Assembly (NCBI GenBank): GCA_029067255.1
Contig: JAIEEW010000133.1
Coordinates: forward strand, 1 to 26,918
Reading direction: 5' to 3'
Origin: Clostridia bacterium
GTDB taxonomy: Bacteria > Bacillota > Clostridia > Christensenellales > UBA3700
Length of the DNA stretch: 26,918 bases
Numbering within the stretch: position 1 is the stretch's first letter; the number at the start of each line of letters is the position of its first letter. The position numbers and the translations under genes were made by a program. The notes under the pieces were generated by a model, which was given only the letters and a program-made list of their open reading frames with translations, was not told the DNA's origin and ran no database searches. Below, piece by piece: positions 6,290 through 25,305 of the stretch.

Positions 6290-6322
6290 AAATCAGGGAA
6301 CCTGCAATAAGTTCCCTAATTT
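6290..6322 (-). terminator. Intrinsic terminator ending the toxin/immunity/surface-protein operon
   Basis: Minus strand: aaattagggaac-ttattgcag-gttccctgattttttac, ~35 nt after stop 6357. Confidence 0.7.
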
Positions 6323-6356: not shown

Positions 6357-9300
6357 TTATATTGCGGTCAACGTAACTTTCGCTTCATAGAATTTCCACG
6401 TAAATTTATCCCAAACGCCGTCGTCATACGTATAGAAACCAAGTCGGATTTTCGTATTTTGCGAAAATTTATCAATGCTCAACGTTACTGAGAAATTATT
6501 ATTCCAACTTTGCGATTTTGTCGGCTGGAACTTATCCTTAGTGTAAACGTTGCTGCCGTTGACATCAAGCCACAACTTAGCAAAATTTCCGTCATGCTTT
6601 ACTCTTTCAAGAAGAGCGCTGATATTGATTTTTATCTTTGTATACCCTAACTCTTTGAGAGTATTGATATCCAAATTCACAAGATATTCTCTAGTATGGA
6701 AATCCTTGTTTTGATTTTCGTCCAACTCTTTGACTTCATCGCCCGATACTCCGTTTATATCCGCGTCTTGACCTATATGCACAACTACCGACGTGCGTAC
6801 CCAATAAGCGTACAGGTATTTATCTTGATTACCCGAATAGTCTTCGCTGAATACATAATCTTTTGCGCCGTTATTCGCAGTAGACCAACCTGTCTGTAAA
6901 TAACCGGATCTTGTGCACAACTCACCTGCAATTTTCACGCTGCAACCTTGCTTTTTATAAACGCTTTTTACTCGTATGATTTGCGACGAATTGTTTTCAT
7001 AATAGTAAACAATAGCGCTGAAAAATACTTCTGAGTAAAAGTTGATTTCCTGCCCGTTATATTTTTGTTTCGCCGTAATTGTAAGCGTAAAACCGCTATC
7101 CGGCGCAGATGCGATCGCGCTTCCGTTCATACTTCCGCCAGTCAACGTCCAAACCAAATCTTCCTTGTTATACGTAAATGAAGAATCCCAACCTGTCAAA
7201 TCAAAACTGTTGTCAATCTCTATACTGGTCTGAGAAACTCCCAAAGAACCGCTAACGCGTTTGAATATAGCAACGTCTTGGGCTTCGATCCTACTCTTAA
7301 TATTGCTTGGCGCAGACGCGCCGTTCGTATAAATATAGTAAGTCTGTGTTCCGTCATGAACGGTAATTTTGTACGTTACGTAATTATTTCTACCGCTCTG
7401 TCCCGATTTTACGCTCAAAGTAAACGTATCGTAATCTTTAATTCCGCCTGCGTAAATAAGCGTAGCGTTGGAAGATACTTCTACGGAATAAGTCAATCCG
7501 TAATTTATTTTACCGCCCAAACCTTTGTATTTTATACGCATATCTACGCTCTGTCCTTCTTCTAGTTGCGGAGCGCCGTAATCAATGTCATATTTATGTC
7601 CGTCTTTGCCGTTTGTCTGTAAATACTCTAATGAGAATGCTCCGTCAAGAGCCGCAACGGTAAATTCCTTATATTGCCACGTATCGCTGTCAAAAGTCCT
7701 GTAAGGCACTCTTACAAGCGTACCCGCGTTTGCATTAGTGGATATATAAAGGAAACCGTCTTCGCACTGCGCGACAATTCCGTTTTTGTCCGCGGTTACG
7801 TTAGGATCGCCCCACTCAACAGATTTATTGGACGCGTGGCCGTGTCCGTTTATCGTAATCAAAGAATTCAAATCCAACGTACCGTCCCTATGGAACGTAG
7901 CGTCGGATATTTCCGCGCTCAAAGCGGGCACGTAGACCGATAAGTAGCAATCCTGCGAGAATACTTTCCCGCCATGATTGTAGTTTACCGTAATAGTTAT
8001 GAACGGATGGTCTTCATTCATCGCGCTAAGATCGGAAATTTTTATCAAACTTCCCGAAGTAGTAATTATCCCGTTATTTGCGATCAACGTAACGTCTATA
8101 TCCGTTACGTTGTCAATAGTATAAACAATTTCGACTCTCAAAGAATCGGACGGAAGCGCTTTTATATTTTCGTTATCCACCGCAACGCCGTCTTTAACAA
8201 TTTCTATACTCTCAAACGCTTCCGCATAAACCGGCATTACTGTTAAATTGCGCTTCAAAGGCATGGAGTCGACTCCCGTCCACTCGTTGGTAAGATTGGC
8301 CGAATACTCTATTATACTTCCCTTACTGGTCAAAGACTTCGGCAAAGTAAGCAATCCGTTTGAGTCTACAACGGCAATGGAAGCATCGATATCGTTAAGC
8401 GAATAGAATATGGGCACGGGGTTATCCGCAAGCAAAGTCGCATACTTAGGAAACGCTTCGGCTTGCATATCGTAGGAGCGAAAATTCTCCACGTTGTCAA
8501 CAATCGAATTGACAAACACTATGCTTTCGACAGGAATATAAATCGAAACGGTAATTTCATCGAATCCGTCGCTGTAAGCCGCTCTTATTTTTACTTCCGG
8601 ATGCGGTATTTTCATGCCCTCTGACCATTCGCTAGTAGGGCGCAAGACAAACGTTCCGTCAGAATGAACGTAACCGTCTTCAACGTATTCCTGCCCTTTT
8701 ACAATTATATAATTCAATCCTGTAGAATCTACGCCGTTGACGGTAGATTCCAAACTCACCGTATCGGCTGCGACGCTACTCGCGACTGCCAACGCTTCGC
8801 CTGCGGCGTTAAAACGTCCAAGCGGCGTAATCGCGGAAATTTCCACAACGGTAGTAGGCATATACAACGTCAGCGTAACGCTGTCGAACGCGTTGGGATT
8901 GTCTACCGAATAAGCGGTTATGGTAACAGTGGAATTGACGTCTATAACAGCGACGTCTTTCTTAGCAGTTATAGTTCCGCTCGCTTCGTCAAAGTCTTCG
9001 ATGTATTTCATACCGTTGCCCGACAATTCGTAACGCAAAGACTGATCGCTTGCATATGAAGGGAAAAATTCGCAAGAAACCGTCCTTGTCTTGCCGATAT
9101 GTAATTTATCGTCTGTTCCCGGCGACGATAACGTTATGCTTTTTACAGGTACCTTTGCGACAGTCATTTCAATAGGATTGCTTTCTATCCCGTCCACTCC
9201 TGCCGTTACTGTAAATACGCTTCCTATCTCAACGTCGGGCGATACGGCGATCACAGCGGTTCCGCGCGCTCTACCGTCCATCAACTCGACCGTCGACACT

Positions 9301-9596
9301 TTGCCCACTTCAGCCGCGCTCTCCGGCGCTACGTTGAAATAAATCTCTTTAGTAGTAGTATACCAAGGGTCAACTTCGTAAGATAAAGTAAACTCTTGTC
9401 TCGGTTGGATTTCCGATATATTGCCGTCTACAACAATCTCTATATTTTCGACGGGAACGGTCTCGAAAGTATAGTCTTCGCCTGAATCAGTCGACGCGAA
9501 AGCATACGAATCGAGTCCCGCTAACGTTGCAACAAACAAAACCAACGCCAACGCAAGAATTACAGTCCATCTTATAATCGTTTTTTCTCCTTTCAT
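6357..9596 (-). CDS. Large secreted protein with multiple Ig-like (Big_2-like) modules, one InlB-B-like repeat and a C-terminal beta-rich domain
   Basis: Signal peptide (TIIRWTVILALALVLFVATLAGLDSYAFA). Recurrent module starts VPVENIEI / VPVKSITL / IPVESIVF / VPALSAEI. GYLQTGW...LYAYW repeat near the C-terminus. No LPXTG, SLH or C-terminal TM seen. GGAGG RBS lies inside the upstream gene; 1-nt gap. Confidence 0.75.
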   Translation of the reverse strand: MKGEKTIIRWTVILALALVLFVATLAGLDSYAFASTDSGEDYTFETVPVENIEIVVDGNISEIQPRQEFTLSYEVDPWYTTTKEIYFNVAPESAAEVGKVSTVELMDGRARGTAVIAVSPDVEIGSVFTVTAGVDGIESNPIEMTVAKVPVKSITLSSPGTDDKLHIGKTRTVSCEFFPSYASDQSLRYELSGNGMKYIEDFDEASGTITAKKDVAVIDVNSTVTITAYSVDNPNAFDSVTLTLYMPTTVVEISAITPLGRFNAAGEALAVASSVAADTVSLESTVNGVDSTGLNYIIVKGQEYVEDGYVHSDGTFVLRPTSEWSEGMKIPHPEVKIRAAYSDGFDEITVSIYIPVESIVFVNSIVDNVENFRSYDMQAEAFPKYATLLADNPVPIFYSLNDIDASIAVVDSNGLLTLPKSLTSKGSIIEYSANLTNEWTGVDSMPLKRNLTVMPVYAEAFESIEIVKDGVAVDNENIKALPSDSLRVEIVYTIDNVTDIDVTLIANNGIITTSGSLIKISDLSAMNEDHPFITITVNYNHGGKVFSQDCYLSVYVPALSAEISDATFHRDGTLDLNSLITINGHGHASNKSVEWGDPNVTADKNGIVAQCEDGFLYISTNANAGTLVRVPYRTFDSDTWQYKEFTVAALDGAFSLEYLQTNGKDGHKYDIDYGAPQLEEGQSVDMRIKYKGLGGKINYGLTYSVEVSSNATLIYAGGIKDYDTFTLSVKSGQSGRNNYVTYKITVHDGTQTYYIYTNGASAPSNIKSRIEAQDVAIFKRVSGSLGVSQTSIEIDNSFDLTGWDSSFTYNKEDLVWTLTGGSMNGSAIASAPDSGFTLTITAKQKYNGQEINFYSEVFFSAIVYYYENNSSQIIRVKSVYKKQGCSVKIAGELCTRSGYLQTGWSTANNGAKDYVFSEDYSGNQDKYLYAYWVRTSVVVHIGQDADINGVSGDEVKELDENQNKDFHTREYLVNLDINTLKELGYTKIKINISALLERVKHDGNFAKLWLDVNGSNVYTKDKFQPTKSQSWNNNFSVTLSIDKFSQNTKIRLGFYTYDDGVWDKFTWKFYEAKVTLTAI

Positions 9597-9597
9597 T

Positions 9598-12474
9598 TTA
9601 CTTTACCTCCAAAATTCCTACAATTTCTCCGGTTCCTAAATCGCCGTTGTCGAAAATAAAAAGTCTTTCATCTTCCGTAATGCGGTAATTGACCGAGAAA
9701 GTTTGATTGTTATATTTGAACACTGCCGTGCCGTTTTCTCTCAATTCAACGGTTGCGCCGTTAAATTCAAAAGTACCTATAAATTCCTTATTCGTATAAT
9801 TAACAGGTCTGACGTTTCCGCAAGTCATCGTATGCTCGAATACGCTTAGGCTTGTCCCGCGAATATCTATAAAATCCGCCCGCAGCAAACCGTCGCGCGC
9901 AAACGCAATATCAATCGTGATATCTTCTTTATCAAGCAATTGATACTGATGGTTAAACAAAGCGGTTTTTAACGTCATGACGCCGTCTTCTATACGGTAA
10001 ACTCCGCTAACGTCAGCAGACAAAACTCCGTTGACAAAAGTCTTATAAGAATACAGTCCGTCTGCCGTCAACGTCAACTCCGAAGACAAAATATCCGCGT
10101 CTTTTGCAAACGTTGCCGTCCACGTTTTGACAAAATCGCAACCGCTGTAATCTACCTTGTCGAAAGACGGTTGCGGCGCGGCAGGACGCTCCCACTCGCT
10201 GTAAATCTCAATATCGCTTCTCATTACTCTCGCAAGCAATTCGTCAACGGAAATACTCTGCGACTTTTGCTCGTCAAGGTAAAGTCTTCCGTCTTCAAAT
10301 ATAGAATCAACTGTCAACAACGCTTCTGCGGAAAGCCCGCTCAACGCGTCTTGCAAAGTTTGTTTGCCTGCAAGTCCGTCTATACGTTCAAAACCGTTGC
10401 GATAATATATTGTAAACGCAAAACTGTTGCTCACTCTTTTGACGTATATTTGAGTATCTCCGTCGAATACGTATTCTGCCAGGTCTTCAAAATAATATTT
10501 CTTTCCGTCGATCGTGTATTCGGTGATATAATTCGCGTTGTCTTCATCGTAAATAAATTTTACGGTCTTCAAATCTACGCTCGCTATTACCCCATTCCAA
10601 CCGGCGGGATAAACAATAGAATGTTGATTATACCCCAAAAACGACAAAGTCGACATCTCGGATAGTTTTGTCTTGAACGTTACTGAAACCGCATATTCGC
10701 CCGCAGTCATTGCAAACTCCGCTTGCACAACGGTATTATTGAGATTTTCTCCTTTGCTTACGCCGTCTACCAAGATATCGTCAATATTTGCATGCATAGA
10801 TACTATCTTAACCGTCGCTCCTATGGGAATAATAAAAACGCTTCCCATATCAGGCATTGCCGACGTCTGCTCGGTTTTTCCTTGCGCTTCAAACTCATAC
10901 ATCCAGCCTACGCTTGCTCCTTTGCTTCCGTCTATATGCAACTCTCTAGCCTGAGCAGTAACAACGTAAACTGTAATTTCTTTTCCTTTGCTCAAATCGG
11001 CGGTATAGATTCTAGACCTATCAACGTCGTAATATGCAACGGGAGTTTTCCCATTCGCCGAATATATCAACGAATTAAGTCCGGCAGACTGCAAATCGTA
11101 TTTTTCCGTCCTTACTATGCCGACCTGTTCTGTCAAAACTGAATTGTCAAAATAATCAACAAATATCACTTTTACGGTAGCGGTCAATTTGAAATCGGCA
11201 AATACTATAATATCTGACGTAATATTTTCCAATTTATCAACAACTTGACCGTTTAGTAACCATCCGTTGAAAACGTATCCCTGTTCGACCGCTAATTGCG
11301 ATACGGCTGGTTGCAAAGAAATGGCTCCGTCGCTGTTTTTATATTTAGAAGGATTGATTTCAAGATTTACGTCTTCGAAATTTAATCCGCCGCCAATCTT
11401 GTATACAACGTTATATACTCGCTCTTCGACCGGCGGAAGAGACTCGACGATCTCTTCTCTTTTGGCTTCAAGCGTCTGTTTTATAGCAAGTTGCTCAGTC
11501 GTGGGTTGAGAAATTTTATTCAACAACGACAAAGCATAATCTATGCTCGGCAGATTATCTGCGTCCATAGATTCGGTGGGCGGCAACAAATCAAGAACGT
11601 TTTGCAAGAATTTTTGCTCATCGTCTACAACAGGCGCAGCATTCACGTTTATCTCGATTTTTACAGTCTTTGTTATGCCATGCAAAGTAAAAACAAACTC
11701 AATCTCGTTGTCTGTTATCGCCAACGGTTCGCTCTTGTCATAATCCCAATCCTTTATAAGTTCGTCCGCCGCATTTGCGTACTTCGCGTATACTTGTACT
11801 CCGAGAAAATCAAAATACTCGCCTTCGAAATAAGTAAGTTTTATAGGCATTCTTTTTATGTAAATCGACTGCAAAATTTTTGCTTCGATCTCAATAGCAA
11901 TATCTGCTGTCTTTCCGCCGTAACTTACAGTAACGCGCGTGTCGTCTATTTGTAACTTTCCTTTCTTATCATACGTCCAATCATTTACGATTTCGCTTTT
12001 GCCATTGTTGTAATGCGCGGTTACTTCCATTCCGTCTGTTTGGAAATAAGAATGTTCGATATATTTCAATTTATCCGGCTTCTTTGTAATTTCTATTGAC
12101 ACGAGATCTTTCTTTACTACGCTGATTGCAAAAGACGCGCTTTTTACCGTTCCCTTATCCGCATAAGAAACTTTAATCTCCTTATCGTCAAGACTTATCT
12201 GCTTTTTATCCAAAGTATAATTAGTTATGATTTGGCTTTTTTTGCCGTAATATGCTTTGACGACCATACCTTCAGTATCTACGTCTTCTCCTTCGATATA
12301 ATCCGTTTTTTCGGGCAAATCTACTATTTCTATCTTTGTCAAATTAGAATGCGGAATAAGCGTTGCCATAAGTATTATCGAAACGATCAGTGTAATGACG
12401 CTTAATATTATAAGCCCCGCCCCAATCGGATTTTTTATACAAAATCTTTTTATCTTATCTAAAAAATTCTTCAT
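9598..12474 (-). CDS. N-terminally membrane-anchored surface protein with three bacterial Ig-like (Big_3-like) repeats
   Basis: Basic N-terminus then TM (IGAGLIILSVITLIVSIILMATLI). Three repeats of the type SIEITKKPDKLKYIE...GMEVTAHYNNG, a helical linker, a GYVFNGW InlB-B-like repeat and beta-rich C-terminal units. Confidence 0.78.
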   Translation of the reverse strand: MKNFLDKIKRFCIKNPIGAGLIILSVITLIVSIILMATLIPHSNLTKIEIVDLPEKTDYIEGEDVDTEGMVVKAYYGKKSQIITNYTLDKKQISLDDKEIKVSYADKGTVKSASFAISVVKKDLVSIEITKKPDKLKYIEHSYFQTDGMEVTAHYNNGKSEIVNDWTYDKKGKLQIDDTRVTVSYGGKTADIAIEIEAKILQSIYIKRMPIKLTYFEGEYFDFLGVQVYAKYANAADELIKDWDYDKSEPLAITDNEIEFVFTLHGITKTVKIEINVNAAPVVDDEQKFLQNVLDLLPPTESMDADNLPSIDYALSLLNKISQPTTEQLAIKQTLEAKREEIVESLPPVEERVYNVVYKIGGGLNFEDVNLEINPSKYKNSDGAISLQPAVSQLAVEQGYVFNGWLLNGQVVDKLENITSDIIVFADFKLTATVKVIFVDYFDNSVLTEQVGIVRTEKYDLQSAGLNSLIYSANGKTPVAYYDVDRSRIYTADLSKGKEITVYVVTAQARELHIDGSKGASVGWMYEFEAQGKTEQTSAMPDMGSVFIIPIGATVKIVSMHANIDDILVDGVSKGENLNNTVVQAEFAMTAGEYAVSVTFKTKLSEMSTLSFLGYNQHSIVYPAGWNGVIASVDLKTVKFIYDEDNANYITEYTIDGKKYYFEDLAEYVFDGDTQIYVKRVSNSFAFTIYYRNGFERIDGLAGKQTLQDALSGLSAEALLTVDSIFEDGRLYLDEQKSQSISVDELLARVMRSDIEIYSEWERPAAPQPSFDKVDYSGCDFVKTWTATFAKDADILSSELTLTADGLYSYKTFVNGVLSADVSGVYRIEDGVMTLKTALFNHQYQLLDKEDITIDIAFARDGLLRADFIDIRGTSLSVFEHTMTCGNVRPVNYTNKEFIGTFEFNGATVELRENGTAVFKYNNQTFSVNYRITEDERLFIFDNGDLGTGEIVGILEVK

Positions 12475-12512
12475 TTGTCTATCTTCCTTCTTTAATTATC
12501 CATTTATTTGCA

Positions 12513-12830
12513 TTATTTTTTTGTACTTTCCCCTTTTATTATAATTGAAATATATAAGGTTTCTTTTGATGACCATTTCTCAATACTGCTTAGATATTTT
12601 TGCGCTTCTATATTCGAATCTAAAACTGACTCCCCTTGATAATACCAGCCGCAACCACTACTAGTTAACTCTCTATTTTCATCGTATAGTAATATATCTC
12701 CGCCTAAAATTACTTTGTTGTCTTCAAGCAAATTTTCTAGCAAACCCGTATAGTCGCAATAATTCCATACTGTACCGTAAATTCTCCATTCATCATAACT
12801 TATACTAACGCAATTTATACCTTTCTTCAT
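12513..12830 (-). CDS. Putative immunity protein, Imm40-like
   Basis: 105 aa with ILGGDIL...GWYY...SNIEAQKYL, matching the GGD/W pattern I recall for Imm40. AGGAG RBS; last gene of the AT-rich array. Confidence 0.65.
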   Translation of the reverse strand: MKKGINCVSISYDEWRIYGTVWNYCDYTGLLENLLEDNKVILGGDILLYDENRELTSSGCGWYYQGESVLDSNIEAQKYLSSIEKWSSKETLYISIIIKGESTKK

Positions 12831-12856
12831 AATAAATATATCTCCTATTTGCCTAT

Positions 12857-12881
12857 CGTTGCCGCAACTTGCTGTCCGTCC
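12857..12881 (-). repeat. 25-bp intergenic relic of the toxin Hint-coding sequence (copy of 16089-16113)
   Basis: cgttgccgcaacttgctgtccgtcc versus cgttgccgtaacttgctgtccgtcc: 24/25 identical, same orientation, compared base by base. Confidence 0.9.
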
Positions 12882-12887
12882 TATTGA

Positions 12888-13274
12888 TTATTTGCTGTAT
12901 GCTATTTCTATATCGCCGTCGGCAAATCCATAACCCACTGCTTCCGCATTTTTAAGCGCTGTGGAATATTGTCCTTGCTGAAGATAATCTTCTAGCAATG
13001 TTTCTACTTGTTCCAAACATTCTTCCCAGCCGCCTTCTATTTCAAAATATAATAATCTATCATTGCAATGACTTGCATAAATTCCATCTCCGCACGCCCA
13101 GTCGCAATCGTACTCATCATACTCGTCAAATGCTACTAAATCAACGCTATACTTATCGTCTGATTCTTCGTCTGCTTCTTCATAGATAAGAACACAGTAC
13201 GCCGCCGCGTCAACTTTAACTTGTTGCATTTCTGCATTCATCCATTCATCAAATTGTTTCTTCACATTTTCCAT
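12888..13274 (-). CDS. Acidic 128-aa protein, putative orphan immunity protein
   Basis: Very D/E-rich, with YSVDLV...DCDWAC and GYGFADGDIE motifs. Sits inside the immunity array with a short intergenic gap. Family not named with confidence. Confidence 0.6.
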   Translation of the reverse strand: MENVKKQFDEWMNAEMQQVKVDAAAYCVLIYEEADEESDDKYSVDLVAFDEYDEYDCDWACGDGIYASHCNDRLLYFEIEGGWEECLEQVETLLEDYLQQGQYSTALKNAEAVGYGFADGDIEIAYSK

Positions 13275-13289
13275 TATTCTATCACCTTT

Positions 13290-13880
13290 TTATTCCGTTC
13301 TATTTTTGCTAAATCCTATGCCGGTAAATTTATTTTTAGCGATTATAGACTTGAATCTTTCGGATACTACTATAAAAGTGCTGTATTCAGTTACAAATCT
13401 TGCATCATATTTTAATCTAAATATGTCCATGTTGTCGGGAACCTTTTCAGATTTTATAGACGGTATATAAACGTATAATTTCCCATTTTCTGACTTACTA
13501 TTCCAAAATATAGTCTTATCTATATCGAGCGCATCTGGCACTGTATTTAGTACATTTGCTATACAATACCCCTCCAATTTTTCTTTGTTGTAATGCTCTA
13601 CTTTTATGGGTATATACTGTATTCCAGTAATTCCCGCTCCCTCTATTGCTTCTCTCATTCTTGGCGAAAAAATTGGCACCATTTCAGTGTTTTGTAAAAA
13701 GTCATCAGGCGTTCCGTCGTCTTCTTCAAGTTCGGCAAAAAATTTAATATTTTCGCTACCTGTAAACTCCTTACATATTCTAAAAATATTTCTATCTATT
13801 TTCAAATCTTTTAGATTTGTAACGCACACCATCGGATCTTTTACTGCATGTTCGCAATTCAATATTCTAAAATATTTCAT
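13290..13880 (-). CDS. Putative immunity protein, Imm11/DUF1629-like (paralogue 2)
   Basis: PDDFLQNTEMVPIFSPRMREAIE..GITGIQYIPI, YCIANVLN..DALD, DIFRL, IVVSERFK..I...KFTGIGF pattern. AAGGA RBS. Confidence 0.75.
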   Translation of the reverse strand: MKYFRILNCEHAVKDPMVCVTNLKDLKIDRNIFRICKEFTGSENIKFFAELEEDDGTPDDFLQNTEMVPIFSPRMREAIEGAGITGIQYIPIKVEHYNKEKLEGYCIANVLNTVPDALDIDKTIFWNSKSENGKLYVYIPSIKSEKVPDNMDIFRLKYDARFVTEYSTFIVVSERFKSIIAKNKFTGIGFSKNRTE

Positions 13881-13890
13881 ACTTTTCCTT

Positions 13891-14478
13891 CTAATCCGCC
13901 TTTATTTTGCAAAATCCTATACCAGTGAATTTGTTTTTTGCTATTACTGACTTAAATTTTTCAGAAACAATTATAAATCGACTATAATCAGTTGCAAACC
14001 TATCGTCATATTTCAATCTAAAGATGTCCATGTTGGAAATCGCTTCTGATTTTATAGACGGTATATATACAGTGAATTTCCCATTATCTGACCGACTATT
14101 CCAAAAAATAGTCTTGTCAATGTCAAGCGCATCCGAAACCGAATTTAGTACATTCGCTATACAATACCCTTCCAACTTTTCTTTGTTATAGTGCTCAACT
14201 TCTATCGGTATATACTGTATTCCTGTAATTCCTGCTTCTTCTATGGCTTTTCTCATCCTAGGCGAAAAGATTGGCACCATTTCAGTGTTTTGCAAAAAAT
14301 CATCGGGAGTTCCATCACTTTTCGCTGTTTTGGGAAAAAATTTAATATTTTCACTACCAACAAACTCATCGCAAATTCTAAACTTATTTCTACCTATTTT
14401 CAAATCTTCAAAATTTGTTATACATACCATCGGATCTTTTACTGCATGTTCGCAATTCAATATTCTAAAATAGTTCAC
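13891..14478 (-). CDS. Putative immunity protein, Imm11/DUF1629-like (paralogue 1, GTG start)
   Basis: Same motifs as 13290..13880 and near-colinear with it. GTG start at 14478 with AAGGAG upstream. Confidence 0.75.
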   Translation of the reverse strand: MNYFRILNCEHAVKDPMVCITNFEDLKIGRNKFRICDEFVGSENIKFFPKTAKSDGTPDDFLQNTEMVPIFSPRMRKAIEEAGITGIQYIPIEVEHYNKEKLEGYCIANVLNSVSDALDIDKTIFWNSRSDNGKFTVYIPSIKSEAISNMDIFRLKYDDRFATDYSRFIIVSEKFKSVIAKNKFTGIGFCKIKAD

Positions 14479-14500
14479 AACCTACTTTCTCCTTTGCTTA

Positions 14501-15511
14501 TCAGTCTTCCTTTATCCACCACTCACCATAGCCACCGCTATCAGGTAATTGACTGTCTTTAAGATTATAATGTCTTTTATTAAAAGTACATGCTTCTTTT
14601 AATTTAAGACATGGCGTGAGATCTCCATCGATTATGTTAGTATATAAAAAGTCGAAACACTGCAAGTTAGGATACCTTTCAAAAAATTTTATCGACGGTA
14701 TACTTCCGCAATTCCTAAGTACCAAACATTCCAATGAGTCAACACATTTCATTTCTTCCAAAAAACTCAAATCACACTTCTTGATATTCTCCAATATCAA
14801 CACTTTCAAATTCTCAAGATTTTTAATTTCGGATATATCCTGTAATTTTGGGCAGGAGTCTATCCTTAATTTTTTAAGATTCGGGACCTTTGATATTCCT
14901 TCTATACTACTCATTGACCTGCAATAAGATAAACTTAATAAATGCAAGTTCTTAATTCTTTCGATTCCTGAAAGATCCTTAACATTGCCTTGTGTAAAAA
15001 ATACTATTTTCAACTTTTCAGGGTTTTCAATAAAATCAAATGAAAAGTCTTTAGGTCCATGTAATCTTAAATCTACAAGCCCTTTTATTTCCCGAATTAT
15101 TTGAGACTTTACTTTACCATCATCATACTGTGCATAAGCCGCTACTGACGATTTATCCAAATTCTTAAGTTGATTTGCTTGTGCAGTATCCAAAATTTTT
15201 AATTTAGGAAATTTGGACAAATCAATACTGGTTGATTTATTTTTTACATAATAAGATAATTCCGTAAGATTTACAAACCTATAAATCGCATTACTTACAA
15301 TGATATTGCCGCACAATTCTAGATGTTTTACTACTTCTGGATTCTCAATTTTATATAAAAAGTCCAAAGAAACTGATTTCAAACAATCATCAGCATCAAT
15401 CCAAATAAAATCGCTTCTATTTTTATTGATGTATTTCATACAATGTTCTATTCTATTTGAATCTTGCGGAAGTTCTATTTTTACACTTCCATCTCCACAT
15501 TTTTTTATCAT
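14501..15511 (-). CDS. Leucine-rich-repeat protein, probable cognate immunity protein
   Basis: Repeating LxxLxLxx units (LHLLSLSYCRSM, LKKLRIDSCPKL, LKVLILENIKK, LECLVLRNCGSI, LQCFDFLYTNI). No signal peptide; starts 10 nt after the toxin stop. Confidence 0.8.
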   Translation of the reverse strand: MIKKCGDGSVKIELPQDSNRIEHCMKYINKNRSDFIWIDADDCLKSVSLDFLYKIENPEVVKHLELCGNIIVSNAIYRFVNLTELSYYVKNKSTSIDLSKFPKLKILDTAQANQLKNLDKSSVAAYAQYDDGKVKSQIIREIKGLVDLRLHGPKDFSFDFIENPEKLKIVFFTQGNVKDLSGIERIKNLHLLSLSYCRSMSSIEGISKVPNLKKLRIDSCPKLQDISEIKNLENLKVLILENIKKCDLSFLEEMKCVDSLECLVLRNCGSIPSIKFFERYPNLQCFDFLYTNIIDGDLTPCLKLKEACTFNKRHYNLKDSQLPDSGGYGEWWIKED

Positions 15512-15521
15512 CTTTACTCTC

Positions 15522-15878
15522 CTAATGTACCCATTTATGGTAAAACCAATCGTTTGCTAAAAGTTTTTTATAACTCTCCTTAAATGGTATATCGCCATAT
15601 TTAAATCCGGGACTTGCTATTTTATTTAACAATTTCTCGCCGTCTTTTAAGTAACCGTTCATTAAATCTGCTTCTTTTATAAATGCTTCCATATCATTTT
15701 TGCACGGATAAAATTTTTCGCTTCCTTCCACTAACGTTCCTTTAAATTCTTTTACCTTAGATTTTATTGAAACTTCTCGGCGAGCCAGTGTTCCTTTACC
15801 TACGTATACATGTTCCGTTCCATCTTTCAATTTAACTTTGAATTCATACGCTCCAACTTCTTTTTTCTTACAAGCAGA
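15522..15878 (-). other. C-terminal toxin domain, GIY-YIG (URI-fold) nuclease-like, aa 1857-1974
   Basis: G-A-Y strand, YVG strand, Arg shortly after, helical Glu (EAFIKEADL) and distal Asn (LLNKIASPG), in the canonical GIY-YIG order. Confidence 0.72.
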
Positions 15879-18800
15879 ATTATGTACGGCAATGCCATCG
15901 CCGTCGCCGACAAAATAAGTATGGTTGTCCGCTACTTCAAAGTTATAAACTTTGGCGGGACTATCAAGGATTTCATGCTGTACTTGCTCGACTATTACTT
16001 TCTCGCCGTTGACGTTGACGAGTACGTCGCCCGCTCTTAGATCTTCGGCGGATACCCAATCGTTGTTGGCATAGAATTTATGTCCGGGCGTTGCCGTAAC
16101 TTGCTGTCCGTCCGAAGTAGACACCGTAACCAATTCGTCTACTTCGTTTTCAAACGTCTGCAATACTCGCTTCTCCGACACCTTTCCGGTAGCAGGATTA
16201 TAACTCTTTACCTTATCTCCTACTCTTACGTCTTCTATACACTTGATCGCTCCGCCCGCCATAAGCACAACCGTGCCTGCGACAAAGCAGAATTTCATTT
16301 TGCCGAGAGCCTTTCCTACGCCGTGAATCAGTACGCCGGTAGCAAATCCCACGGTAAACGATTTGAGTATATCTTCTATGCTACCGCCGTCTGCCCAAGT
16401 CATTGCCGCTTCTGTCAAGCCGTCGATAAGACCTGCGCCGAACCAACCAACGCCCGGTATAGCGGAAAGAACGCCTGATACTGCCGCTACGCCCACGCGT
16501 AGCCAGTTGACTTGATCGAGTTTTTTGCCTTGAACGACAGTCTGCATGAAGACTTCCATTCCCGCGCCTATAAATGCGCCCATAATATACGGAGCCGCTG
16601 CGGTAGTAACTCCGCACGTTACCGTGCTGATTGCCGCGACTATAATTACGCCAACGCATATCATTCCTATCGCAACAATCGCTCCGGCAAGTCTATCCAA
16701 CCAAGTCGCTTTGTCTTCTTCTTCATGCGGGAATTCAAGTTTTGTAAGGTTGCCGTCCGCATCTACGGTATAATACTCGTTATTGCCAAGCGTCTTTTCC
16801 AAATCGTAGAATTCCTGTACGTCTATGCCCAATAAACTCTCATCTTGTTCGCTAAGAAGATATGCCGACAATGCCGAATAACTAATATAAACAAAGTTTA
16901 AAGTATCTACTGTAAAACCGTTTGCAGTCTGATCTGCAATATATTTTTCATATTCGCCTTTGGCTATCGCCGGATCAAGCATAGTATTAAGAGAAGTTGC
17001 TTTAATGGTAGTATCATTGCCAAGATTAGGATCATATACGCATCTTCCTTCGTCATAACTATATACAGCCCCGCTGTCTTTAATAAAGTATTCTTCTTCT
17101 ACAGGGAACGAACTATATTTTACTAATGTATCTTCTACACTATAAACTATGTATTTATTATTTGCCACATAATGACACGGTCCAAAATTTTGCGTATATG
17201 ATAACACATAACTGCAACTTTGTTTTTCTGGTTGAAAATCCTTGCTGGTTTGATAAAGTTCAATCCCATTACCTATATCTTCTTCCGTAATAACATACTG
17301 TCTAGGCAATGCGACAAACCCAGCGCCATAATATACAAAGCCATTATCGTCAACACTATACGCTTCTTGATAATTCGTATACCCAAAACCTAATACTTCT
17401 TCTTTGTTCGGCAAAACAATCATTGCTGGAAAAACGTTTATTTGATCATAATAATATAGATCAGTCATAACAATCGAATACAAGAACATCTCGTCTTCGG
17501 TCAAATCCAACTCATTCGTTATTTCGCTATCACGTATATTGCCAAGCACTTCTTCCTTACTAGGCTTTACTTCGTCGCTTAAAGTATTGTCAACGCTGTA
17601 ATTGCCCAACTCAAAGTTGTTGGCAACAACGGAATTATCTGTTACGCTTTCCGATTGAACGGGTACGACGTTGATTTCGTTGTTTATCTTATTAAAGACG
17701 CCGAGATCGCTCCAACCGCCAAACGCGCTTATAAACGTGATAACGACTATGAGCAAGAACGCGGTAAACAGCGTTACTGCGCCGTATTTACGCAATTTGT
17801 TCTGTCTTACGAATTCCTTATCGGAGAACGATTCTCTGCCGTATATCGGCGATACGGATTGCGTATTTATCTCAAAGGCTTTTCTCTTTCTCCTTACGAT
17901 ATAAACCAAGAATACCGTAAATATCAAACCAAGCATGCTTATCATTCCGCCCAATGCGACTTTGCTCGCCGACGGTAAGGAATCAAACGTTCCGCTCAAT
18001 TTTTCTATTTCAATATCCGTACCGCTTTGGACGGCTGTCGTACCTTTCGCTATCCACAGCGCTTTAAGTACGATTTTTCCGTCTACGTCGCTAGGTACGG
18101 TCATTGAGAAATCGGAATAAATCTTACCGCTTGTCGAAGTGGTCTGCCAAATCCAGCCTACAAATACAAAACCTGCTCTGGTAACGTTGGGAAGAGAAAT
18201 CGTTGTTCCCGCCGCGACTTGAAGACTGTCGCTTGAAAGCAATTCTCCGTCAATGAAATGTATTCTTATTCTACCGCCCGTACCGCTTTGCAAAGCGTCT
18301 TCGTCCTGCTCGCTTTCGCGTACCCACAATGCGTCCAGTCGCAGATATTCTACGTTTGCAAGCGACGTTATCTGTCCATAATATACTTTGTTGTTTCCGT
18401 CGGTTTCTTTCTCTCTCCAACCGAAGAAGGTATAACCGGTTCTGGTCGGGAAAGGCAACGTAACCTTATCGCCGACGTGCGCTTGAATAGACTGATTAAG
18501 ATTACCGTCATAAAGCGCTATTTCGGTAGTCTTAAAGTGCCATACCGCGACAAAAGTCGGATTTGCCGACGTAGGTATATATTCGCCGTTATACACCGCG
18601 CCGCCATACTCCCAACCGCCGAAAGTCCAACCGTCTTTGCTTGCCGTAGGAAGTTGGATAGGTTCGCCTATCTCGACTTTCATTCTATCAATAATTTCTC
18701 CGCCGTCGGTATCGAAATCGAGATACGTATACTTTTGAGAGATCTGCTGCCAGACGTAAAGCGCGCCGCTCTTTTGGGGAACGAATACGTTGTCCGCAAT

Positions 18801-21446
18801 AAGTTCGTCTTCATAAAGCCATCCGTCGAAAACAAACAGTTCGCTTTGAAGTTTAGGTATGGGAAGTTGTATTTCCTGACCTACGAAAACGTGATAATGC
18901 TTTGTTATTTCGTCGTCTTCCTGCTCGAGTTGCAGATATACGTCCGCATAGCCGACAGGCGCGCTTATAATAACGCTGAATTCGACTGTGTTGCCCAATC
19001 TATCGGCAAGGGTAAAATCGTATACGCCGCCGTCAGAAAACCACATATCCGATACTTCGTCGAAATTATATATGGAAGTTTCGTTATTATGCTTGATTTT
19101 TACTATACTGTACAAATCCAATTCATTTGACAATGATTTTAATATGAATCCATTCAGACCGCTTTCAGTAACGGTATTGTTTTTGCTAAAAGTCTTTTCA
19201 ATAAATTTGCCGTTTCTAAACAGACTTAACGTAGCCGTACCGCTCATCTCTCCCGGTCTGACATAAACGGTGTCGTATTCGCAGACCGCATTGTTGGAAT
19301 TAGTTTCACGGACAGTATACACGCCGCTCGGAGCATTAGCCGAAACCAACTGATATTCGACTGATACTCCATAAACTATATCGTACGTTTTTTTAGTAGC
19401 CTTGTGAGTAAGCGTAACAGTATTACTTTCAAAGTCGGCGACCTTGAGAAACGCGAAATTCATTACTCCTTCTTCTATTTCGCCCGTATCGGGAGAAACG
19501 TAACGGTACTTTCGTCCGTTCAGAGAAGGCAATCCCGCTTTCATATATGATTGTTCCGTATCGTTTGTAAATACAATAACGTCTTTTGTAAAATTCATTT
19601 CCAGAATTTTATCGTCCGCAACGTCGGCAGTTTGGTAACTTTCCGGATCTGTGGAATCAAAATAGCGTTCGACAATCAACGATTTAATATTTTTATCGAC
19701 TGCCGTTAGAACGTCTTTTTGCGACGCATACGTTTTGCCGTCGTATACGTAATTTCCTTTATTCTTACTTATTTTTGCGCGCTCTATCTCATAAGCGAAA
19801 TCGTACGCGCCGCCGAAATCTGAAAATGCAAAGATAGCGTTGCCCGCGCCCTTTGTAGGCATCACTACTGCATAATACTTACTCTGCATATCGGAAAAAC
19901 TGTACAATCCGTTCAGATACGCTTCGTTTACAGACGGATCTTTCGACGTGTCTTTATCCACGATTTCAAATCTGAAAGTAAAGTGGAACAAATCTCCGGA
20001 AATATCTTTGCCTGTCAAATATCTGGGATTGCCCCAAAATTCCGCTTTATATATACCTTCTTCGTAAATAGTGCCTTGCAACGTTTTCGTCTTATAATCC
20101 GATCCGTGATTTTGAGCAATATTCCTGACAAAGACTTCCTTGCCTTCGTCTTCTATTTTATATAGTTTTCCTACAACGGGAGCAACAGTTCCGTCCGTCG
20201 CGTTAAGATTCCACGTCGCTTTTCCCGCAACGTAAGCGGGATATTCTCCAGTCGTATATACTCTCTGACTGTCGGGAGTAAAAAGACTTTGACCGAAATA
20301 ACCCACTACGGCGTCGTTGACTTCCCGTCGATCGACGAAAATTGTGTGTTTAATACTTTTTCCGAGTTCGCGATTTATAGTGAAATCGTAGCGACCGTGG
20401 TCAAGAAATACCTGTCCATCATAAGCCGTATGCTCTTCTCCGCCGTTGAATCTGTATTTTATATCGTAAGCCTCGACGCCCATCGTATCTACTCTGAATC
20501 CGTTGAGAGTTACGTCCCCGTCGAGTATCGTTTCGAAATCATCGATAGATATTGCGCCGCTGCCTTCGTCGTCGCCTACCTTTCCAAATGTACTTGCGTT
20601 ATGGAAAAGCACCGCTCCCGAGTTCTGTACCAAATAAAACTGGGCGGTTTCCAACATATTTACGTATTCGGTTTCCGTTTTGGTTTTAGTCATTCCCAGC
20701 CAATTTTTGTAATCCCAACTGGTGGTAATTTTCAATTCGTAAGCAAACGTCAACTTAATAAATACGCCTGCGGACAAGTCTTTGCCGGACGGAGTATAAA
20801 GAGTATAATAATTAGTGCGATAGAATTGATCGAGCGGAACTACTTCGGTAAAATCCACGGTATGCAGACTGGTTTTGCTTTCGCCGTCTTTGGTCTGCCA
20901 CTCCCACGCGCCGTTCGGCTCGCTCTTCTTTTGGAAAATAAACGCGCCCGTACCTATTACGCCCAGTCTATCTATATCTCCGACTTTCTGCGCCGTGTCG
21001 TCAGATATCGAATATACTTGCGTCTTATAGTATCCGTCGTCATAAATACGTCTTTTACTCAGTTCTTCTGGATTGTTGAAATTGTAAGACAACTTTATCG
21101 ACACTGAATTGCCCGTAACTCCATAAGCGCTGTAGCCGGAAATATTGCCTTTGTCGATCAACGGAGTCGTCAAATCGCTTTCCGTACTTACAGAAAGATT
21201 AACAAGATTATTTTTCAAAGGATGATTGTAAATCGAGACTTTCTTGTCTTCGCTCTCTTTGTAGCCTTTGTTATCTTCCAGTTTGTACGCGTTGACCCCT
21301 ATCGACGCCGACCTGGTTTGCGTCGCCGCTTTCTCCTGAGCAGCATAAACGGCGTTATCTTCAAAGTCCCCCAAACTCAAAGAGATGCCCAACCCCAATC
21401 CTAAACAAAGCAGTAATGTCAAACATACGGTAATTATCTTTTTCAT
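15522..21446 (-). CDS. 1974-aa membrane-anchored polymorphic toxin: signal peptide, ectodomain, InlB-B-like repeats, two-TM hairpin, hydrophobic pre-toxin region, Hint domain, GIY-YIG-like nuclease tip
   Basis: Signal peptide MKKIITVCLTLLLCLGLGLG. Four LP...G(Y/W/F)xFxGW repeats. TM1 GGMISMLGLIFTVFLVYIV-RRKRK; TM2 KLRKY-GAVTLFTAFLLIVVITFISAF. Hint CFVAGT...TPGH...VYNFEVADNHTYFV...HN/S. Tip GAYEF...YVGKG..R...E...NKIASPG. Followed by immunity-like genes. Confidence 0.88.
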   Translation of the reverse strand: MKKIITVCLTLLLCLGLGLGISLSLGDFEDNAVYAAQEKAATQTRSASIGVNAYKLEDNKGYKESEDKKVSIYNHPLKNNLVNLSVSTESDLTTPLIDKGNISGYSAYGVTGNSVSIKLSYNFNNPEELSKRRIYDDGYYKTQVYSISDDTAQKVGDIDRLGVIGTGAFIFQKKSEPNGAWEWQTKDGESKTSLHTVDFTEVVPLDQFYRTNYYTLYTPSGKDLSAGVFIKLTFAYELKITTSWDYKNWLGMTKTKTETEYVNMLETAQFYLVQNSGAVLFHNASTFGKVGDDEGSGAISIDDFETILDGDVTLNGFRVDTMGVEAYDIKYRFNGGEEHTAYDGQVFLDHGRYDFTINRELGKSIKHTIFVDRREVNDAVVGYFGQSLFTPDSQRVYTTGEYPAYVAGKATWNLNATDGTVAPVVGKLYKIEDEGKEVFVRNIAQNHGSDYKTKTLQGTIYEEGIYKAEFWGNPRYLTGKDISGDLFHFTFRFEIVDKDTSKDPSVNEAYLNGLYSFSDMQSKYYAVVMPTKGAGNAIFAFSDFGGAYDFAYEIERAKISKNKGNYVYDGKTYASQKDVLTAVDKNIKSLIVERYFDSTDPESYQTADVADDKILEMNFTKDVIVFTNDTEQSYMKAGLPSLNGRKYRYVSPDTGEIEEGVMNFAFLKVADFESNTVTLTHKATKKTYDIVYGVSVEYQLVSANAPSGVYTVRETNSNNAVCEYDTVYVRPGEMSGTATLSLFRNGKFIEKTFSKNNTVTESGLNGFILKSLSNELDLYSIVKIKHNNETSIYNFDEVSDMWFSDGGVYDFTLADRLGNTVEFSVIISAPVGYADVYLQLEQEDDEITKHYHVFVGQEIQLPIPKLQSELFVFDGWLYEDELIADNVFVPQKSGALYVWQQISQKYTYLDFDTDGGEIIDRMKVEIGEPIQLPTASKDGWTFGGWEYGGAVYNGEYIPTSANPTFVAVWHFKTTEIALYDGNLNQSIQAHVGDKVTLPFPTRTGYTFFGWREKETDGNNKVYYGQITSLANVEYLRLDALWVRESEQDEDALQSGTGGRIRIHFIDGELLSSDSLQVAAGTTISLPNVTRAGFVFVGWIWQTTSTSGKIYSDFSMTVPSDVDGKIVLKALWIAKGTTAVQSGTDIEIEKLSGTFDSLPSASKVALGGMISMLGLIFTVFLVYIVRRKRKAFEINTQSVSPIYGRESFSDKEFVRQNKLRKYGAVTLFTAFLLIVVITFISAFGGWSDLGVFNKINNEINVVPVQSESVTDNSVVANNFELGNYSVDNTLSDEVKPSKEEVLGNIRDSEITNELDLTEDEMFLYSIVMTDLYYYDQINVFPAMIVLPNKEEVLGFGYTNYQEAYSVDDNGFVYYGAGFVALPRQYVITEEDIGNGIELYQTSKDFQPEKQSCSYVLSYTQNFGPCHYVANNKYIVYSVEDTLVKYSSFPVEEEYFIKDSGAVYSYDEGRCVYDPNLGNDTTIKATSLNTMLDPAIAKGEYEKYIADQTANGFTVDTLNFVYISYSALSAYLLSEQDESLLGIDVQEFYDLEKTLGNNEYYTVDADGNLTKLEFPHEEEDKATWLDRLAGAIVAIGMICVGVIIVAAISTVTCGVTTAAAPYIMGAFIGAGMEVFMQTVVQGKKLDQVNWLRVGVAAVSGVLSAIPGVGWFGAGLIDGLTEAAMTWADGGSIEDILKSFTVGFATGVLIHGVGKALGKMKFCFVAGTVVLMAGGAIKCIEDVRVGDKVKSYNPATGKVSEKRVLQTFENEVDELVTVSTSDGQQVTATPGHKFYANNDWVSAEDLRAGDVLVNVNGEKVIVEQVQHEILDSPAKVYNFEVADNHTYFVGDGDGIAVHNSACKKKEVGAYEFKVKLKDGTEHVYVGKGTLARREVSIKSKVKEFKGTLVEGSEKFYPCKNDMEAFIKEADLMNGYLKDGEKLLNKIASPGFKYGDIPFKESYKKLLANDWFYHKWVH
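15879..16289 (-). other. Hint / intein-like (pretoxin HINT, BIL-type) autoprocessing domain, aa 1720-1856
   Basis: C1 in CFVAGT, block-B TPGH, block-F VYNFEV...HTYFV, terminal His-Asn followed by Ser. 137 aa with no homing endonuclease insert. Confidence 0.93.
18040..18900 (-). repeat. Four InlB B-repeat-like (Listeria-Bacteroides repeat) modules in the toxin ectodomain; boundaries approximate
   Basis: IQLPIPK..LFVFDGWLY; FDTDGG...IQLPTASKDGWTFGGW; VTLPFPTRTGYTFFGW; ISLPNVTRAGFVFVGW. Confidence 0.75.
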
Positions 21447-21516: not shown

Positions 21517-21631
21517 ATGATAAACTTGCAAATTGCAAAAAGTCAACTGATTTTTGTCAACAAAAGTTAACATTATAGGGTTTTGGAGTTAACATCTTGT
21601 CAACAAAAGTTAACATTGCCCTGTTGACAAG
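21517..21631 (-). promoter_or_regulatory. Toxin operon promoter region with an operator-like repeat array
   Basis: Candidate TTGACT (21541-46)-N18-TATCAT (21517-22). Perfect 21-bp direct repeat at 21554-21574 and 21597-21617; 10-bp inverted repeat at 21596-21605 and 21622-21631; seven GTYRAC hexamers. Confidence 0.65.
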
Positions 21632-21755: not shown

Positions 21756-22541
21756 TCAAACCAAAGCGGTTTTGTTCAATACCAAATTGCTGAGCGCGCC
21801 AAAGCCGACTGCGAAAATCGCTCCGCCAGCAAGACACATAAACACGTTGACAACGGTGGAATCAAGCGGCGTTATCATCGGTATCATTGTGAACAACAAC
21901 ATACTTACCGCGAACGATCCAAGAATCGAAAGCCATAATTTTTGCTTTGCCGCAACGCTTACAAGCAAATAAATCGCAACAAAAACCGCAGCCAACAGTA
22001 TTTTGGATACTATACACATAAAGATTCCGCTTGCGCCTGCGCTACCTACGTCAAACGACAGTCCCGCGATCGCGCCGCCTATCATCGCTCCGACAAAATA
22101 TGCGAGCAACATTATTGCTCCGCCGACGTATCCAACGAGAGTCTTTGAGATTACGTAATCGCTTTTTTTGGAACGGATGGTAAAAAGATTTTTTGCATAG
22201 CCGCTTTTGAAATCGTCGGCGACGAATATGCTCACCAAAATCGCTATAATAAAATATATCATATTTATGTTGCACATACTCGTCAAGCCCATTGACATTT
22301 CCGCGCCGCTTAAAGCCCCCAAAGATTGCCAAGCGTTGGTAAAAGTATCTGCCGCCGCTTCTACGCCGTTTGCGGGCGCTGTTGATACGGCTGTCGTCAT
22401 TACCAAAATCAGTATAGGCATAGCAAAACAAACGCCAGCCATAATATAGATAAGCGGCATGGTAAACATTCTCTTAAAATCCACTTTGAGCATGCTTTTC
22501 AATCTTTTTCCAAAACCTTGTTTTTCAAATTGCATTTCCAT
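21756..22541 (-). CDS. ABC-2 type transporter permease (copy 2)
   Basis: About six hydrophobic segments; KSMLKVDFKRMF N-terminus; DDFKSGYAKNLF...SKTL motif typical of BcrB/ABC-2-like permeases. Confidence 0.88.
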   Translation of the reverse strand: MEMQFEKQGFGKRLKSMLKVDFKRMFTMPLIYIMAGVCFAMPILILVMTTAVSTAPANGVEAAADTFTNAWQSLGALSGAEMSMGLTSMCNINMIYFIIAILVSIFVADDFKSGYAKNLFTIRSKKSDYVISKTLVGYVGGAIMLLAYFVGAMIGGAIAGLSFDVGSAGASGIFMCIVSKILLAAVFVAIYLLVSVAAKQKLWLSILGSFAVSMLLFTMIPMITPLDSTVVNVFMCLAGGAIFAVGFGALSNLVLNKTALV

Positions 22542-22542
22542 T

Positions 22543-23442: not shown

Positions 23443-23552
23443 ATAAACCGCCTTTCATAGTTATTTTCGTTGCTTTCGCAACGTTGGTATTAGAGTAAGT
23501 GTTTTTGATTTGCCCGCTTTTGGCAAATATCCGTTCCGTTGATCCGATAAGA

Positions 23553-24374: not shown

Positions 24375-24375
24375 T

Positions 24376-25278: not shown

Positions 25279-25305
25279 TTTCATTCTCCTTTTGATTACG
25301 ACTCA

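Follow-up and report, generated by a model that had tools for sequence, protein, structure and literature searches.

We analyzed a stretch of DNA of 26,918 nucleotides (hereafter, the window), which is an entire contig (JAIEEW010000133.1 of assembly GCA_029067255.1) of a 1.38-Mb metagenome-assembled genome, 70% complete, from a gut Christensenellales bacterium. Its minus strand holds a block of eight open reading frames (ORFs; Table 1) that an earlier interpretation of the letters alone (the sequence-only reading) had taken to be a new polymorphic toxin system, with a toxin, an array of immunity genes, and two large surface proteins. We call the toxin carrier T and the surface proteins A and B. 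All eight co-directional ORFs were recovered as predicted, with gaps within the proposed range of 1–57 nt (10, 22, 10, 15, 57, 38, and 1 nt in gene order), and the block is closed by the hairpin that had been noted, a 14-bp stem followed by a T run. The block also appears to lack an internal terminator, as had been claimed: minus-strand matches inside it were weak (5–7 bp stems at 18570, 16877, 13211, 8148, and 7652, all in coding sequence), and the total of 13 terminator-like matches was no excess over shuffled sequences (14.3 ± 4.1). As previously remarked, there are no secretion-machine genes in the window. Most of the labels given to the gene products were borne out as well, with a PT-HINT domain in T, an LRR_4 match in the leucine-rich-repeat (LRR) protein P0002 (E 6e-12), Imm11 (PF07791) matches in P0003 and P0004 (E 7e-18 and 5e-16; 65.2 and 59.1 bits, respectively, against a cut-off of 22.1), and a pI of 4.05 for the acidic protein P0005, which belongs to no family.

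Table 1. Features of the eight-gene block and its borders, in window coordinates; residue numbers are those of T.
Feature	Coordinates	Strand	Description
T (P0001), gene 1	15522-21446	(-)	1974 aa, polymorphic toxin carrier
T signal peptide, residues 1-35	21342-21446	(-)	Sec-type, predicted by reading the sequence; hydrophobic N-terminus ending VYA/AQ
T ectodomain, residues 36-870	18837-21341	(-)	family-defining Ig/FN3-like beta-sandwich string
T Listeria-Bacteroides (Flg_new / InlB B-repeat) repeats, residues 871-1140	18027-18836	(-)	PF09479 E 3e-16, three stretches
T two-helix membrane hairpin (predicted), residues 1160-1251	17694-17969	(-)	helices flank basic loop, pI 10.3
T second ectodomain, residues 1252-1580	16707-17693	(-)	alpha+beta core ~1310-1480; AlphaFold2 confident for core only
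T Gly/Ala-rich hydrophobic helices, residues 1582-1719	16290-16703	(-)	best-conserved region of T; 65-99% identical within subfamily I
T PT-HINT domain, residues 1720-1857	15876-16289	(-)	PF07591 E 4e-30, 105.3 bits vs cut-off 27.7
T tip, residues 1858-1974	15525-15875	(-)	117 aa, basic, pI 9.3, GIY-YIG/URI-like
LRR gene (P0002), gene 2	14501-15511	(-)	336 aa
Imm11 gene (P0003), gene 3	13891-14478	(-)	195 aa
Imm11 gene (P0004), gene 4	13290-13880	(-)	196 aa
Acidic gene (P0005), gene 5	12888-13274	(-)	128 aa
HINT coding remnant	12857-12881	(-)	25 nt, spacer between genes 5 and 6; 24/25 identical to 16089-16113; blastn-short E 1.6e-5
Gene 6 (P0006)	12513-12830	(-)	105 aa
A, gene 7	9598-12474	(-)	958 aa
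B, gene 8	6357-9596	(-)	1079 aa; start 1 nt past A stop codon
Terminator-like hairpin closing block	6290-6322	(-)	14-bp stem, then T run
Sigma-70-like promoter match upstream of T	21546-21517	(-)	consensus match only
Two perfect 21-bp direct repeats	21554-21574, 21597-21617	(-)	43 bp apart, just upstream of T promoter-like site

T belongs to a family of ~30 proteins of 1860–2040 aa with a common architecture, which we retrieved with its N-terminal region. The string of immunoglobulin (Ig)/FN3-like domains that defines this family (residues 36–870) was modeled by AlphaFold2 (AF2) with a mean predicted local distance difference test score (pLDDT) of 82.9, and fold searches with Foldseek and VIA returned only generic Ig/FN3 arrays (titin, the Sap S-layer, the GhpA grappling hook, SpyCEP) at Z < 7. 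The same segment had no Pfam match and no PDB profile match, and look-alikes of the T N-terminus in the ESM Atlas were limited to generic Ig and Flg_new clusters (scores ≤0.84). Weak matches to two N-terminal Ig pieces of T (E 3e-14 and 3e-6) occur elsewhere in the same genome, on contig C96:3483-4734 (L032, L033), and probably belong to an unrelated surface protein with common Ig domains.

The hydropathy peaks of the predicted membrane hairpin are kept in all T homologues of both subfamilies described below. An LPSAS motif followed by a transmembrane (TM) helix and RRKRK (residues 1157–1190) was suggestive of sortase anchoring; this motif is missing from 20 homologues and is seen in this copy only, and we rejected it as an anchor. 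The second ectodomain (1252–1580) had no Pfam match, and its best match in the AlphaFold database (AFDB) was a 718-aa 'Hint domain-containing protein' (E 1.8e-14). The AF2 model of residues 1141–1722 as a whole had a mean pLDDT of 59, and its only matches in structure searches were generic helical ones (Z < 8). In the Gly/Ala-rich region, hydropathy analysis shows residues 1582–1619 as a single continuous hydrophobic stretch of 38 residues, and the AF2 model divides residues 1582–1638 into two helices. We rejected an identification of this region as PT-TG (PF14449), to which five homologues gave no match even at E 10. The adjoining HINT domain retains Cys1, TPGH (the T-x-x-H block), and VHN (the terminal His-Asn) invariantly across 17 homologues, and the residue at +1 after the terminal Asn varies among homologues (S, D, A, K, Q, G, Y). 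A splicing intein, which needs a conserved Cys, Ser, or Thr at +1, was thereby rejected; because the catalytic residues are kept and +1 is variable, the HINT domain of T appears to be a self-cleaving release module, a role already suggested for the HINT peptidases of polymorphic toxins (PMC3482391).

A profile of the tip family aligned with the GIY-YIG domain of UvrC (1ycz; E 0.004), including the Y, YxGK, R, and E residues, and 3 of 19 family members matched PF22945 (LEM-3 GIY-YIG; E 6e-4), the window's own tip being without a Pfam match. In the family alignment, Y10, Y24-x-G26, F65, E68, and M72 are invariant, and R32 and N84 are nearly so (≥90%). Judged by these sequence features, the tip of T is probably a GIY-YIG/URI nuclease. 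Across the T family there are at least seven tip types, the others including AHH, WHH, colicin-DNase, Tox-REase-9, and PF01541 GIY-YIG. Segment-wise comparison of the four carriers nearest to that of the window (80% identical in the N-terminal region and 96–98% in HINT) revealed three unrelated tips among them, and the window's tip family recurs on carriers that are 51–80% identical, some of them at just 51–63%. Because near-identical carriers bear unrelated tips, T is a true polymorphic toxin, and the constant pairing of one carrier with one tip that the sequence-only reading had named as speaking against its proposal was not seen.

The point at which tips switch is fixed, lying after the invariant V-H-N, with a near-invariant Cys two or three residues on. 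The G+C fraction is 0.26–0.39 over 12400–15875, compared to 0.48–0.54 in the HINT and Gly-rich regions, and the drop starts at the HINT/tip junction and lasts to the start of A. The best explanation is that an AT-rich cassette, made up of the tip and the immunity genes, is swapped at this junction. The spacer between genes 5 and 6 bears the scar of an earlier cassette, 25 nt of leftover HINT coding sequence; in tblastn searches of the relatives' arrays no orphan HINT or tip fragments were found, and this fossil in the window was the sole find of its kind. The near-invariant Cys beyond the HINT His-Asn (P0001 residues 1855–1862, window ~15861–15884) is a candidate for a disulfide, a junction marker, or an alternative nucleophile. 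In one relative (L040:879-6892), T has 1863 aa and stops directly after HINT, and the AHH tip is encoded 107 nt downstream in an ORF of its own (104 aa); either the junction is broken or the toxin is naturally split.

The genes behind T vary with the tip. An LRR gene lies directly downstream of every T with the window's tip family (the window, L011, L004, L002, L038, and L039), and the identities of tip and LRR protein to those of the window were 75 and 80% in L011, 57 and 41% in L004, and 38 and 33% in L002, respectively. Since the LRR protein always adjoins this tip family and diverges in step with it, it is the likely cognate immunity protein; P0002 has no signal peptide and no TM segment, and the same is true of all immunity proteins, which are thus cytoplasmic. 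The LRR gene also persists as an orphan in relatives that bear other tips, with 82% identity in L007. P0003 and P0004, which arose by tandem duplication (76–82% DNA identity), are of the Imm11 type that follows AHH-tipped T proteins in L009, L010, and L040, in line with a published association of Imm11 with Tox-AHH (Zhang et al., 2012; PMC3482391). P0005 shares 32% identity with the C-terminal half of the Imm11 fusion protein in L009, and the AHH immunity set consists of Imm11 fused to a P0005-like domain in L009 and of Imm11 plus a separate 126-aa gene in L040. Genes 3–5 of the window match this set and are therefore best seen as an orphan antidote set for a tip that this strain does not carry. 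P0006, earlier labeled Imm40-like, contains a GGD motif and is 87% identical to an array gene of L007 that carries a precomputed PF15569 (Imm40) mark; neither protein matched Pfam on re-scanning, which leaves the label unconfirmed, and P0006 is a probable orphan immunity gene. Elsewhere in the family, the PF01541-type tip goes with a 323-aa helical protein, and a same-genus reference genome has an immunity array of 12 genes.

Beyond the array lie A and B, for which the TM anchor and the signal peptide claimed by the sequence-only reading, respectively, were both seen. A consists of an N-terminal TM anchor, which is kept in every homologue, Big_3 repeats, and a conserved non-Ig C-terminal half. 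B combines a signal peptide with an Ig-like array and one InlB B-repeat, and has no anchor, sortase motif, or wall-binding signal. The description of both proteins as Ig-rich was partly upheld, with weak matches in the window's copy (Big_3 E 3e-4; Flg_new E 8e-6) and stronger ones in relatives (Big_3, Big_2); PDB profile searches with A and B gave only Big_3-like and InlB B-repeat pieces.

Comparison across loci had been set beforehand as the check on the proposal, and in it the T N-terminus and both large genes proved conserved and the tip and immunity genes variable. In subfamily I (40–80% N-terminal identity), the gene order is T, variable array, A, B, and 10 of the 11 close loci that are informative have A and B behind T (the window, L002, L003/L018, L007, L009/L010, L011, L038, L039, L040, and G371). 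In subfamily II (30–34% identity), the order is A', B', T, array in 9–10 loci. By profile alignment with hhalign, A and A' (probability 100, E 2e-48, 580 columns) and B and B' (probability 100, E 2e-51, 797 columns) are orthologous well beyond the Ig repeats. The identities of T, A, and B fall in step (80/73/71, 54/46/44, 54/43/42, and ~32/29/24%), and the genes flanking the trio differ between loci.

In subfamily II, several T proteins lack PT-HINT, and B' ends in a Hint-like module (L005:6096-9998, B' residues ~1063–1300; also L022, L023, L025, L027, and L028) that has a Pfam Hint match of E 6e-4, a conserved C-V-A-x-G-T start, and a conserved, non-polymorphic tail of ~150 aa. In this subfamily, the self-cleaving domain seems to have its place on another protein of the trio. 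Near a subfamily I trio (L039:23811-24093), a gene for a 1139-aa protein with MACPF and Flg_new domains lies ~1.5 kb downstream of B, one HAD-type hydrolase gene intervening; this pore-forming-domain protein may or may not be connected with the module.

All named records of the family come from Christensenellales-type Clostridia in mouse, human, and insect-gut metagenomes, plus the cultured Anaerocaecibacter muris CLA-AA-M11. The family is sparse, as is usual for competition loci: in a sample of 401 genomes of the order, four had T, as did one of five other species of the genus. B was also found in 4 of the 401 genomes, and full-length T and B occurred in the same two, the rest being decayed or fragmentary. 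The other two genomes with B matches were G022, with decayed A and B remnants, and G055, in which an A'/B'-like pair without a T match lies on a contig of 5 kb and so cannot show that A and B occur without T. Only the B census is usable, as Big_3 repeats dominated the one for A, in which 63 of the 401 genomes matched, nearly all at profile positions 10–280 only. In G022, which belongs to another genus, the adjacent A and B fragments contain stop codons (contig C7:405-3082), and a same-genus genome (G113) has a T fragment with a stop; these fragments are decaying copies of the module.

We read the block as a Sec-dependent polymorphic toxin–immunity locus built on a conserved T–A–B module, and we put the probability of this reading at about 0.68. 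It draws on the domain content of the locus, tip swapping, the co-variation of tip and immunity gene, the conservation of the trio, and the compositional break; the swapping of tips and the tip-linked immunity genes of homologues uphold the earlier call of a polymorphic toxin locus with an immunity array. In the mechanism we propose, T would be exported via its signal peptide and held in the producer membrane by the hairpin and the hydrophobic helical region. The hairpin and a further hydrophobic pair make an even number of spans, which would place the Ig/FN3-like stalk of ~1100 aa, the second ectodomain, and PT-HINT with its tip outside the cell. Self-cleavage by HINT would then free the small, basic, GIY-YIG-type nuclease tip to attack neighboring bacteria on contact. 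The cytoplasmic LRR protein, encoded 10 nt downstream of T, would protect the producer, and genes 3–6 would provide orphan immunity against the tips (AHH and others) of related strains. If any part of T serves as a membrane-entry device, the leading candidate is the stretch of Gly/Ala-rich helices, which is better conserved than the rest of the protein. B is secreted and carries no wall-binding or sortase signal, so A or T would have to hold it. In this reading A and B would be obligate partners of T in a surface assembly, in which membrane-anchored A and secreted B most likely form a structure with T that presents or delivers the toxin; they might act as adhesin, scaffold, or delivery proteins. 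In a bolder version, to which we give somewhat less than even odds, T, A, and B would be an undescribed three-component Sec-dependent apparatus for toxin presentation or delivery in monoderm gut Clostridia, a Gram-positive functional counterpart of CdiA/CdiB or of Umb particles, with A and B as obligatory assembly or targeting partners and the Gly/Ala-rich helices as the translocation device.

Several observations weigh against our reading of a T–A–B module. The profile matches of the tip to GIY-YIG domains are below formal thresholds (E 0.004 and 6e-4), and DNA of the locus was present in two animal-gut DNA metagenome runs of one study and in 0 RNA runs. Domain searches with A and B gave no function-revealing domain. 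In L004, T and the LRR gene are followed by inverted genes and an integrase, with no A or B within 6 kb. In A. muris CLA-AA-M11, a cultured mouse isolate that also has T, the LRR gene, and A, B is split into pieces of 569 and 116 aa with its middle missing (L003/L018 20014-22042); B is intact, at 1073 aa, on a metagenomic contig that encodes the same T protein (L002, 20014-23235). Because L004 lacks both genes and the A. muris B is broken, A and B are not indispensable for keeping T, and a two-copy conserved neighborhood in a narrow clade could partly reflect shared descent. These last points are also what would be expected if T and its immunity genes were a self-sufficient PT-HINT toxin and A and B ordinary adhesins or wall proteins that are neighbors by clade inheritance. 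The content of A and B, which hold only generic Ig-like, Big_3, and B-repeat modules, and the existence of shorter proteins with the C-terminal half of T alone, such as the 718-aa Hint protein in AFDB, fit that account too. However, the trio has stayed together although its gene order has been rearranged (T-array-A-B in one subfamily, A'-B'-T-array in the other) and its sequences have diverged to ~24–32% identity, with flanking genes that vary by locus and with a variable cassette inserted between T and A without parting them. The B family, moreover, occurs in just four of the sampled genomes, two with full-length T and the others being the G022 remnants and the 5-kb G055 contig. We consider a self-sufficient T quite unlikely.

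The topology of T, another point on which our reading is exposed, is drawn from just hydropathy and the positive-inside rule, and a single membrane crossing by residues 1582–1619 would put HINT and the tip in the cytoplasm. The toxic end might then be kept in the producer cytoplasm by an odd number of spans and exported only once the Ig stalk senses a target, by analogy to CdiA, which retains its C-terminal half. The uninterrupted 38-residue hydrophobic segment and the cytoplasmic nature of all immunity proteins would suit this arrangement, but the two helices of the AF2 model fit a hairpin, and no energy-coupled exporter is conserved at the loci, the ABC-2 transporters of the window being missing in L007 and L011; we regard cytoplasmic retention as very unlikely. 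The converse departure, in which T, A, and B would form a released, diffusible particle like the Streptomyces umbrella particles instead of a tethered contact-dependent weapon, finds some encouragement in a B without anchor or sortase motif, in the possibility that N-terminal HINT cleavage at Cys1 frees HINT plus tip, and in the Umb loci, which also join a polymorphic toxin with conserved accessory genes (PMC11062931). The T hairpin and the A TM anchor, both conserved in every homologue, argue instead for tethering, and neither ALF repeats nor trypsin-lectin partners are present, making a diffusible particle unlikely. Finally, InlB-type B-repeats and LRR domains recall Listeria internalins, and the system could in principle be aimed at animal host cells or at adhesion. 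That it does not serve bacterial competition is nevertheless extremely improbable, considering that the LRR protein lacks a signal peptide and varies together with the tip, that the tips are nucleases of typical interbacterial kinds (AHH, WHH, colicin-DNase, GIY-YIG) and are each paired with an immunity gene whose product is cytoplasmic, and that poly-immunity arrays reach 12 genes.

T belongs to a known kind of toxin. Sec-signal ('T2SS') toxins freed by a HINT peptidase, with poly-immunity arrays and URI-type tips, have been described (Zhang et al., 2012; PMC3482391), and a recent survey contains a 'PT-HINT group' with unexplained N-terminal regions (Pandoomain, 2026; PMC13483458). The statement of the sequence-only reading that no recognized carrier is present and that the system is new was therefore correct for the N-terminus, which matches none of Rhs, LXG, CdiA, MafB, and MuF, but it overlooked the PT-HINT domain, through which T partly matches the class of Sec plus HINT toxins listed in 2012 (PMC3482391); of the conditions that this reading had named as refuting it, a match of the carrier to a described toxin class therefore applies in part. 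With these toxins the locus shares a signal peptide, a PT-HINT domain directly before a variable nuclease tip, an adjacent cytoplasmic immunity gene, heterogeneous poly-immunity arrays, and the Imm11–AHH pairing. T differs in its own-family stalk of ~1100 aa, made of Ig/FN3 domains and B-repeats, and in its internal membrane hairpin, and the locus differs in the non-PT-TG hydrophobic region before HINT, the conserved A and B partners, and the LRR protein as immunity to a URI/GIY-YIG tip, in place of the Imm14, 26, 44, and 51 listed for Tox-URI1 (Zhang et al., 2012; PMC3482391). In the literature we found no description of the T carrier family, its internal hairpin, the conserved A/B partners, or LRR immunity for a GIY-YIG-type tip.

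The nearest functional analogy is the umbrella particle of Streptomyces (UmbA/UmbB/UmbC), in which a polymorphic toxin assembles with the products of conserved neighboring genes (Zhao et al., 2024; PMC11062931). Both systems have a monoderm polymorphic toxin gene accompanied by conserved genes for accessory secreted proteins, and the likeness would lie in a possible working as a multi-protein assembly. In contrast, Pfam searches of T, A, and B found no ALF repeats, coiled-coil stalk, or trypsin-like/lectin UmbA; T and A are membrane-anchored, the host is of another phylum, and no sequence relationship was found. CdiA/CdiB/CdiI resembles the locus in having a very large surface stalk with an exchangeable C-terminal toxin, an immunity gene next downstream, orphan modules, and a pre-toxin junction (see also PMC4725963). 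The T locus, in turn, has no two-partner secretion (TPS) domain, filamentous hemagglutinin (FHA) repeats, or CdiB barrel, its host is monoderm, and its tip would be freed through HINT instead of at a VENN-type junction. WapA/WapI of Bacillus subtilis is a Sec-exported, wall-associated RHS toxin not known to have a HINT domain or conserved A/B partners. Like T, WapA is a polymorphic toxin that depends on a signal peptide, stays associated with a Gram-positive cell, and has its immunity gene downstream, whereas T has neither RHS repeats nor wall-binding repeats. A further parallel is S8-Ntox35 of Staphylococcus aureus, a diffusible polymorphic toxin of the Sec type, likewise from a Firmicute, which depends on processing outside the cell and on the product of an accessory gene (bioRxiv 10.1101/2025.07.24.666436); there, a separate S8 peptidase acts on a BetaH domain, whereas T carries its own protease, HINT, and its accessory proteins lack protease domains. 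Pfam and NCBIfam searches identified no Rhs/WapA, CdiA, or MafB carrier, T residues 36–870 being an Ig/FN3 string and not a beta-helix or Rhs shell. T likewise had no LXG or WXG match that would connect it to the type VII secretion system (T7SS), and no WXG100 protein was found in the 70%-complete genome.

How Sec-exported Gram-positive polymorphic toxins reach and enter their targets without a T7SS or other injection machine is poorly understood. The family described here is a compact one confined to gut Christensenellales, combining a carrier and two large partner proteins with a cleanly delimited, exchangeable weapon cassette, and A. muris CLA-AA-M11, a cultured and publicly available carrier, opens Gram-positive Sec-dependent delivery to bench testing. 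Through this family, an LRR protein would join the folds known to give immunity to GIY-YIG-type toxins, and the family bears on strain-level competition in an order much studied for its links to host health.

Upstream of T, the perfect 21-bp direct repeats beside the promoter-like site could, from their sequence and position, be a candidate binding site for a regulator. The window's flanks encode ABC-2 transporters, a helix-turn-helix (HTH) protein, a LysR protein, and redox enzymes. Two tandem ABC-2 pairs, each a permease and an ATPase (21756–25284), lie between T and the pair formed by the HTH gene and a gene for a 158-aa protein. In L007 and L011, the same HTH/158-aa pair is found at most ~2 kb ahead of T, and the interval contains no ABC-2 transporters. 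Because they are missing from this interval in both relatives, the transporters look like an insertion and seem to stand outside the system. In another branch of subfamily I (L009:2605-4684 and L039:6608-8691), a gene for an extracytoplasmic function (ECF)-type sigma factor and two unannotated genes (~265 and ~230 aa) directly precede T, an arrangement suggestive of dedicated regulation.

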